Source: Nitrospirota bacterium (GTDB taxonomy: Bacteria; UBA9089; CG2-30-40-21; SBAY01). From it: a stretch of DNA of 45,904 nt. Below, one piece after another: positions 16,304-17,727 of the stretch (its first letter is position 1; each line of letters opens with the position of its first letter). A program made the translations under genes and the position numbers. The notes under the pieces were generated by a model that was not told where the DNA came from, made no database searches, and saw nothing but the letters and a program-made list of their open reading frames with translations. The stretch is from assembly GCA_043816605.1 (NCBI GenBank), contig JBDRHR010000102.1, positions 1 through 45,904 on the forward strand. The letters are read 5' to 3'.

Positions 16304-17727
16304 CTACATTCTCCTCATCATCCCTGGTGGTCTTGGAGAACGACCTGAGGACTCAGTTTTTTCTTTCTTTGGGGTTAGACTATTCAGTTTTACTTTTTCG
16401 CCTTCGGTTAATCCTTCAATTACCTCTACAGAGGTCTCATCCTGCAAACCGGTCTTTATTTTCCTCGGGATAGGTTTACCATCTTTGACTACCAGAACTT
16501 CCTTGCTTCCTCTTTTCTCAACAATAGCCCCAAGCGGCACATAGAGGATATCCTCTCTTTTTGCCGTGATAATATCAACATCAGCCGTCATCCCTGGTTT
16601 CAGTTTTTCCGCTGAAAATTCGGGGTTCGGGATTCGAATTTTGGATTTTGGATTTTGGATTTTGGATTGAACTGGAATTCTGTATTCTATATTCTGCCTC
16701 CTGCCTACTGCCTCCTTCCTTCTCCTCCCTGAACCCTGTTTCCTGCCTCCTTCCTCCTCCCTTATCTCTATCGTCACCTCGTAGGTAACGATATTGTTCT
16801 CTATCTTGCCCAAAGAGGCAATGTCTGTCACCTTGCCATGATATTTTTCCCCTCTTATGGCATCTAAGGTAATCTCGACATCCTGTCCTGTTTTGACCTT
16901 AGTAATATCCACCTCATTAATCTTGGTCAAGGTTTTCATTGTTGAAAGGTCTCCGATGACGAGAATGATAGTTCCGCCACCGCTATTACCAATGCCTGAA
17001 GTAATCTTCTCCCCTTCCTCTACATTCTTCTCCATGATTGTTCCTGAAATCGGGGCATAAATCATAGCATCCTTCACATCAGATTCGGCTTGTTCATAAC
17101 CTACCTCTGCCTTTAATACACTTGCCCTGGCAGAGGCAATATCCTGCTCTCTTGCCCCCTCAAGGACTAAACTCAATTGCTGGGATGCTGTGTTGTAGCT
17201 ACTCTGGGCTAATTCATACTCTCTTTGTGCCGTATCCACATCCTGTTTTGAAATAAACCCCTGGTTAAAAAGCCCATTTTGTCTGTCCAATTTTATCTTA
17301 GCATCCTCAAGTTTAATCTCTGCCTGCTTTAATGACTCACGGGTTTTGACTATCTCCTGAGGTCTTTCTCCAGCCAGTAAGGTAGAGAGTTTTGCCTTTG
17401 CCGCCTCAAGGTCTGCATTTGCCTGACTAAGCCTGTTTTTAAGGTTGGTTGTATCCAATTCGACTAATAAGTCCCCCTTCCTGACCCAATCACCCTCTTT
17501 AACCGGCAGTCTTACTATCTCTCCTCCTACATTTGACTTAATCTGGACAGTAGTTTTGGTTGGACACTGCCTGTCTCTGTAACCTTAACCACCATATCCC
17601 CACGCTGGACTACAGCGGTCTTGAGCTTTGGAATGTTATCGTCCTTTTTCTTTATGCAGGAGCTTATTCCAAAGATTATACCTACCACCAGGATTATTGA
17701 GACAATGGACATAATTATTTTTTTCAT
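16304..17727 (-). pseudogene. Efflux periplasmic adaptor (MacA/HlyD type) split by a 1-nt frameshift; contains an in-frame repeat insertion
   Basis: Adding one A to the run at 17554-17557 joins ORF 17527-17739 to ORF 16304-17458 through TTVQIKSNVGGEIVRLPVKEGDWVRKGDLLVELD. Confidence 0.8.
16617..16760. repeat. Stack of several heptamer arrays inside a coding sequence
   Basis: ttcgggR, ttttgga x4, ttctRta, ctgcctM and ttcctcc units in series. Confidence 0.8.

Follow-up and report, generated by a model that had tools for sequence, protein, structure and literature searches.

Tandem arrays of 7-nt units (heptamers) have been known in cyanobacteria since 1990, and both their origin and their effect on proteins are still unexplained. 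Heptamers of the types GGGGA(C/T)T and GGGAATC have been described in Nostoc and Xanthomonas, together with a general excess of heptamers in bacteria (Rehm et al. 2015, PMC4692102). Here, we describe an in-frame stack of heptamers inside the gene of a MacA/HlyD-type periplasmic adaptor, encoded on a contig of 45,904 nt (JBDRHR010000102.1, assembly GCA_043816605.1), which is called the window throughout. The window corresponds to contig C102 of a Candidatus Desantisbacteria metagenome-assembled genome (MAG) of 2.62 Mb and 250 contigs, and a search of a literature collection turned up no publication on such repeats in Desantisbacteria. The explanation that we consider probable is that the insert represents a lattice of heptamer microsatellites, of the cyanobacterial type, grown inside a six-residue beta-barrel loop of the adaptor.

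The closest known class is that of the cyanobacterial short tandemly repeated repetitive (STRR) sequences, or heptamer simple sequence repeats (SSR), since the same AATCCAA and AATCCCC units occur in Anabaena and Oscillatoria. In the two loci examined, AATCCAA is repeated 4.6 times in Anabaena catenula (L022) and AATCCCC/AATCCAA units are found in Oscillatoria PCC 10802 (L023); both surfaced through a search pattern lying within the repeat peptide (612 stretches), alongside one orthologue of the adaptor, L021, on the same contig as the orthologous locus L005. AATCCCC is the complement of GGGGATT, the Nostoc repeat of Rehm et al. (2015, PMC4692102), and as in the STRR covered there, the arrays of the present genome have 7-nt units, are short (around four units), exceed expectation genome-wide and are mostly intergenic, near the ends of open reading frames (ORFs). 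Unlike the STRR, they belong to a non-photosynthetic host of a candidate phylum and comprise 134 unit families instead of a few, and about 100 of them are read in frame within genes, here as a 49-codon stack that is hypervariable among orthologues. In the part of Rehm et al. (2015, PMC4692102) drawn on here, heptamers show under-representation within coding sequence and in-frame stacks are not described.

Two other classes of repeat-made protein sequence share features with this locus. Rickettsia palindromic elements (RPE) are palindromic, measure ~150 bp and have a conserved consensus (Ogata et al. 2000, 2002, as recounted in PMC10969869). As in the RPE of that account, in-frame repeat DNA is found here in unrelated functional genes, at sites compatible with the fold, without destroying the protein; the window insert, however, is non-palindromic, lacks conserved ends and any consensus larger than the 7-nt unit, and changes by unit steps. 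Borg elements, in the portion of Schoelmerich et al. (2023, PMC9879509) considered, carry perfect amino-acid tandem repeats, conserved hotspots being described as well, and they resemble the present case in their repeat-made disordered regions. Unlike in Borgs, the unit here is 7 nt, the frame is kept only per three units, the peptide period is at most 7 aa, over 21 nt, and single-unit changes break the gene.

In the window adaptor, 52 residues separate VTIEI from KLKPGMTAD, and most of them are coded by a heptamer lattice of 147 nt on the minus strand, that is, 21 heptamers in a single register or 49 codons (Table 1). The peptide quoted at this place by the preliminary description matches the main open frame exactly, and the coordinates it assigned to the stack (16617-16760) were correct within 3 nt. 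Lag-7 identity is 0.68 in the insert against 0.24 in the remainder of the adaptor gene, and none of 5000 shuffles reached as high a value. Tandem Repeats Finder (TRF) resolved the stretch 16618-16762 into four period-7 arrays, given here as ATTCGGG x2.7, ATTTTGG x4.4 (100% matches), ATTCTGT x2.9 and CTGCCTC x9.9 (70% matches). Units 1-12 form a purine-rich left lattice of a kind common to every insert-bearing orthologue. We also considered whether RIPNPEF, coded at the other end, is the native xNPExx loop and not a repeat. Distant homologues show PNPENL or PNPEGL there, but CGAAYCC arrays of up to 8 units stand at the same position in L003, and such arrays are also found elsewhere in the genome.

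No inverted repeat was found within 16500-16900 and the RNA fold of the insert was no better than that of shuffles (z = +0.56), whereas four intergenic heptamer elements elsewhere in the window fold into near-perfect hairpins (z = -5.4 to -13.9). The arrays of the insert are therefore single arms, as had been proposed from the DNA alone.

Sixteen sequences were compared at the loop, the window copy and P0001-P0015. The orthologue is present in 5 of 25 genomes of the phylum that were examined, all 5 with an insert, and further loci were sought in metagenome contigs through an alignment headed by the insert-less P0004. Two sequences, P0004 and P0006, have no insert (LDADRR and LDADKR), and P0014 stops short of the loop. 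Seven carry an insert with both anchors in frame, measuring 36 aa in P0002, 53 in the window copy, 56 in P0003, 77 in P0005, 82 in P0001, 99 in P0015 and 125 in P0007. The variable length and differing unit sets that the preliminary description had expected of related strains were thus observed, together with the two insert-less orthologues. The insert-bearing loci nevertheless have a common layout: a left purine-rich NNNNCAG lattice, a spacer reading GTTCAAGGGATTAGC or a variant of it, and a right CGAAYCC array of 2 to 8 units, which is found in all insert-bearing loci reaching that end. L003 and L025 have a common beginning and differ in unit counts, and P0008 and P0009 are 95.7% identical over the 322 columns before the loop, while their inserts share 23%. 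The insert turns over much faster than the remainder of the gene accumulates substitutions. One of the orthologous inserts, that of L005 (G006:C308), holds a small GC palindrome, CCCCC TTAATAAA GGGGG, in the middle of its lattice; Elhai and colleagues are said to have found, in 2008, small dispersed repeats nested inside cyanobacterial heptamer arrays.

An indication of how the lattice arose comes from its register, assessed at each locus from the positions of CAG in the dominant 7-nt register. All CAG triplets fall in one register in L003 (25/25) and L025 (19/19), as do 10 of 13 in L002, 7 of 10 in the window and 11 of 16 in both L026 and L027; L005 (3/10) and L004 (3/7) are mixed. The insert-less L024 reads ATT TTA GAT GCA GAT AAG AGA CTC AAA CC at this place, and the first lattice unit in L002, L003 and L025 is a native heptamer, GGTGCAG, the same codons being GATGCAG in L024. 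Neighbouring units are 1-2 bases apart. Since the left lattice keeps a single register that starts at the native heptamer, and its neighbouring units are similar, we infer that this part grew in place through 7-nt duplications, mutation of units and re-amplification of variants. The register result points to growth from a native heptamer rather than transposition, and so narrows the candidate mechanisms to slippage or duplication in 7-nt steps. Many further genes of this genome lend themselves to a test of growth in place.

The preliminary description had instead read the stack as successive insertions of arms from different families. This fits the AAAATCC block, which is lineage-specific, being confined to the window allele and absent from the five other insert-bearing loci aligned; it lies between the spacer start GTTCAA and the right-hand array, both common to orthologues, which fits a later addition in this lineage. 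It is not supported for the left two thirds, which look like one lattice grown in place. Taken for the whole stack, the idea would be that several ready-made single arms of different dispersed families were inserted independently, each keeping the frame. Besides the position of the AAAATCC block, the abundance of that family in the genome speaks for it, as do two pairings of arrays that recur in other genes (AATCCAA/AATCCCG in DnaG and AATACAG/CGAACCC in a molybdopterin oxidoreductase) and P0009, which retains LDADK and then continues with an insert unlike that of its close relative P0008. We regard serial insertion as unlikely, though it deserves to be taken seriously: a single register runs across up to 33 units from the native heptamer onward, adjoining units differ by 1-2 bases, and the frame is unreliably kept. 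Moreover, BLAST of the insert against the genome returned only matches of 24-54 nt, to AAAATCC and CGAAYCC arrays, with no conserved element ends, flanks or consensus.

That the frame is preserved, as had been suggested, is not a general property of these inserts. The right anchor is out of frame or missing in 6 of the 13 insert-bearing orthologues (P0008-P0013). P0008, from locus L003 (G024), has the right anchor in frame +2 and stops in frame 0; P0010, from L004 (G009), runs into unrelated sequence after the insert; P0011 ends in an out-of-frame reading of the right anchor; and P0009 and P0013 may merely stop at a contig end. The frame is lost inside the insert in at least four orthologues. 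From its left anchor onward, P0012 equals the L002/L028 allele with 3 TGGAAAG units instead of 4, which shifts the frame onto a stop; this is one allele pair only, taken from different assemblies. The locus offers a compact natural series at one codon position, from insert-less copies through additions of 36-125 residues and single-unit differences to lost frames. A pump component has repeatedly been broken at this loop, so heptamer repeats are no harmless decoration, and the locus shows how a poorly understood repeat class reshapes proteins.

Phase-variable SSR contingency loci are known from host-adapted bacteria, for example Haemophilus and Neisseria. The adaptor gene resembles them in its intragenic SSR with a unit that is not a multiple of 3 and in the natural allele pair, one allele open and the other truncated, which differs by one unit and in frame. 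If this were a contingency locus, gain or loss of a single unit would reversibly switch the adaptor and the pump, and the frames lost inside other inserts would be further off-states. We consider this improbable. The arrays have only 3-5 perfect units, for which low slippage rates are expected, and the same arrays are found in essential genes (DnaG, tRNA synthetases), where switching off would kill the cell. In G009 the remainder of the gene is gone, and the window copy has an unrelated frameshift, both of which resemble decay and not switching. Heterogeneity within a population could not show in the public runs, none of which contained more than 0.25 of the sampled words: the four compared consist of contigs, and no contig bridges 16606-16760.

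The same breaks of public contigs at the arrays would be expected if repeat reads had been misjoined into the gene during assembly. We give this next to no credence, since independent assemblies (GTDB genomes, JGI metagenomes, NCBI, ENA and Logan) all have an insert at the same codon position, and the frame re-enters the conserved KLKPGMTAD exactly.

The place of the insert in the protein is consistent with a tolerant site. Of 63 homologues, 53 have an equivalent loop of 6 aa and one has 7 aa, typically xNPDxx; in E. coli MacA it reads PNPNGL. The AlphaFold2 model of the adaptor has a mean predicted local distance difference test (pLDDT) score of 79.7, which falls below 50 at residues 237-282, the insert, flanked by strands at 223-233 and 292-296; the insert is thus predicted to be disordered, in the loop joining two beta-barrel strands. 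In MacA, the beta-barrel ring sits atop MacB, according to the portion consulted of a review (PMC5985334). The permissive loop of the preliminary description is borne out by these data, as is the short loop that it noted in the other adaptor of the window (10130..11275, minus strand), which reads FLHIPNPQHLIKPGMF at the equivalent place. No equally long homologous loop was found in orthologues without the repeats, and distant homologues have 6-aa loops. Two distant homologues with 35% identity, P0016 and P0020, carry a conserved 90-aa non-repeat insert in the same beta-barrel loop, and the loop may thus serve generally as a site of domain growth across the adaptor family.

These two homologues also bear on the possibility that the insert has been selected as a disordered segment with a function, such as a periplasmic spacer or an interaction arm, for which the repeats are raw material. 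Its hydrophilic peptide, the seven of 13 insert-bearing orthologues in frame and a Ser-rich run in the neighbouring hairpin of Aggregatibacter actinomycetemcomitans MacA (4dk0) would suit such a role. Neither sequence nor length of the insert is conserved, even between proteins as similar as P0008 and P0009, while two orthologues do without the insert and several are broken; we therefore find a selected function highly improbable.

Analysis of the whole genome showed that the adaptor insert is a single instance of a genome-wide phenomenon, filtered by protein tolerance. At a TRF score of at least 40, the genome contains 643 period-7 arrays, where a third-order Markov shuffle has 1; the corresponding figures are 224 and 5 for period 8 and 251 and 3 for period 9. 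The 643 arrays belong to 134 unit families, of which AAAATCC is the second largest; AATACAG (10 arrays) and AACACAG (13 arrays) are likewise dispersed. Crude ORF calls take up ~83% of the genome; by these, 419 arrays count as intergenic, 116 are at ORF edges and 108 are inside ORFs. An inverted partner within 150 nt was found for 234 of 573 intergenic arrays against 7 of 108 intragenic ones (score of at least 36). Pfam domains were recognized at E 1e-8 or better in 19 of 20 sampled array-bearing ORFs, and array-bearing genes include DnaG, ValRS, IleRS, LeuRS, GlyRS-beta, GlnRS/GluRS and a NuoG-like oxidoreductase. In 43 of the 61 cases with both orientations stop-free, the sense peptide was the more hydrophilic one (mean Kyte-Doolittle value -0.87 vs +0.20), and AAAATCC is in the sense orientation in all 11 of its intragenic arrays. 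Among 122 pairs of adjacent arrays that differ in unit, 58 have the in-register rotation as their best one, where about 1 in 7 would be expected by chance; the set contains some hairpin partners, which counter the in-register effect. A four-unit AAAATCC pattern with at most 1 mismatch was found in 9 of 41 genomes, all of them within the phylum, in 0 of 16 genomes outside it, and never with the reversed control.

Other arrays of the same genome were noted individually. In the DnaG gene (G000:C244:1031-1093) AATCCAA adjoins AATCCCG in frame, and in that of the molybdopterin oxidoreductase (G000:C120:10698-10795) AATACAG adjoins CGAACCC in frame, the same pairings as in the adaptor insert. Within the window, the QueA gene (42635-43837, minus strand) has an AATCCCC/AATCCAA array of 5.7 units in frame (42852-42891), which adds roughly NPQSKIPNPKSKI. 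AATTATC x4.6 (20217-20248) lies just upstream of a GAF/HD-GYP gene (20294-22414) and ATTACCA x3.6 (20336-20360) within its first codons. In the intergenic hairpins at 22378-22449, 23181-23290, 24397-24484 and 27737-27856 the arms agree unit by unit, variant units included, which suggests that whole arms were copied inverted and that each arm did not expand separately.

Growth of a lattice inside the loop, the explanation that we favour, could proceed as follows. The genome would produce 7-nt arrays, and some of 8-9 nt, at a very high rate, and those within genes would persist only if they are stop-free, code for hydrophilic residues, lie in a tolerant loop and keep the frame by their total length. 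The first array at the adaptor loop probably arose from the native heptamer. Change would afterwards have been mostly in 7-nt steps, through gain and loss of units by slippage, point mutation and re-amplification of variants, and at least one array of a dispersed family, AAAATCC, would have joined later in this lineage. The encoded peptide, disordered in the structural model, would be filler. Because only every third 7-nt step restores the frame, such a lattice would often break the gene.

Several observations weigh against this explanation or limit it. For the AAAATCC block, acquisition of a ready-made array fits better than local growth, since the block does not derive in register from its neighbours (compared in register, its distance from the ATTCTGT array is 5 of 7) and is a member of a dispersed family that has 41 arrays and a preferred length of 31-33 nt. 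Given the dispersal of AATACAG and AACACAG, some of the left units could be imports as well. Orthologous DNA comes from 9 distinct loci only. The base of the clade tree, made without the insert columns and out-of-frame tails, is an unresolved polytomy in which the insert-less P0004 and P0006 group at 85/68, so the tree lends no support to the insert-less state as the ancestral one. L026 and L027, compared as possible evidence of slippage and then dropped, are equal in length and can be read equally well as differing by three substitutions or by a one-unit shift. Short-read assemblies can miscount units, and some frame breaks could be artefacts of this kind. Finally, the frame is kept in 7 of 13 inserts against one third expected, which leaves room for selection on the protein.

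A wider and more speculative extension is that 7-nt-step duplication on native codons, independent of lineage, builds lattices in tolerant loops of Desantisbacteria with the same units as in cyanobacteria, and would thereby be a regular source of new disordered segments and, because single-unit steps shift the frame, of heritable on/off switches for non-essential envelope genes. We think it rather unlikely that all of this holds.

The host gene itself is that of a MacA-type adaptor. Its main open frame covers the hairpin, lipoyl, beta-barrel and membrane-proximal parts. A profile of the 63 homologues matched MacA structures in the PDB with E values of 1e-61 to 1e-65 (4dk0, 1.7e-65; 5nik, 4.6e-63; 9qgy; 3fpp), and the best Foldseek matches to the AlphaFold2 model were the MacA chains 9qgy_G and 5nik_D, with probability 1.00. 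The protein shares its domain order, fold and operon content with the MacA proteins of E. coli and A. actinomycetemcomitans (5nik, 3fpp, 4dk0), and a MacB-type ABC transporter is encoded alongside, together with an outer-membrane factor. It differs from them in having 52 residues in place of the 6-residue loop, in the separate genes for ATPase and permease, and in the membrane anchor, which is out of frame in the window copy.

The anchor is out of frame through a missing base upstream of the insert, at an A4 run (Table 1). The four relatives' contigs listed as differing there (one of X1, one of X2 and two of X8) each have 1 more base, at 17553 or 17557, and every full-length orthologue reads through the site (QPKTTVQIK or similar). 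The public pieces listed with zero mismatches leave the frameshift site uncovered, and loss of the base may be real or an error. With this 1-nt deletion the window copy may be a pseudogene; if so, the open frame across its insert carries little meaning, and two of the three frames are open there.

Table 1. Positions in the window of the insert and its parts, of the adaptor gene and of the other genes of its operon.
Feature	Position	Strand	Evidence
Whole in-frame lattice, 21 units	16617..16763	-	TRF, register count, lag-7 identity
Units 1-12, all NNNNNAG (GAGGCAG, GAGGAAG, AATACAG and similar)	16680..16763	-	TRF rows 16694-16762 and 16677-16696
Two non-repeat units, AATTCCA GTTCAAT	16666..16679	-	GTTCAA opens the spacer common to L003, L026 and L027
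CCAAAAT x4, AAAATCC family, perfect array	16638..16665	-	TRF 16638-16668, 4.4 copies, 100% matches
TCGAATC CCGAACC CCGAATT, CGAAYCC family, codes RIPNPEF	16617..16637	-	TRF and orthologue alignment
MacA/HlyD-type periplasmic adaptor, main open frame, 384 aa	16304..17458	-	Pfam HlyD_D23 2.9e-14, HlyD_3 1.3e-10
First 70 codons of this adaptor, with N-terminal membrane anchor and first strand, different frame	17527..17739	-	Aligns with orthologue N-termini
A4 run, one base short relative to relatives; frameshift splits the adaptor gene	17554..17557	-	Sequence and relatives' contigs
TetR regulator	19233-19922	-	Operon member
Outer-membrane factor, OEP/TolC-like	17771..19120	-	Pfam OEP 1.6e-70
Pump ABC ATPase (nucleotide-binding subunit of MacB type), own gene	15622..16299	-	Pfam ABC_tran 2.7e-35
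AAA_14/DUF4143 gene between ABC ATPase and permease	14202-15458	-	Operon map
MacB_PCD/FtsX permease	12572..13801	-	Operon map

A second pump is encoded next to this operon, with an outer-membrane factor, the short-loop adaptor already mentioned, McrBC genes and AcrB. McrB-like (AAA_5) and McrC genes and a 176-aa ORF (7488-8018) lie within 5632-9407, separating the second adaptor from AcrB. Both pump operons thus look interrupted, one by the AAA_14/DUF4143 gene and the other by the McrBC genes. The OEP gene of the first pump contains a repeat of another kind at 18360-18413 (minus strand), in which an 18-nt unit is present three times with 97% matches and is read in frame as SLTGEI-type hexapeptides; unlike that of the heptamers, its period is divisible by 3.

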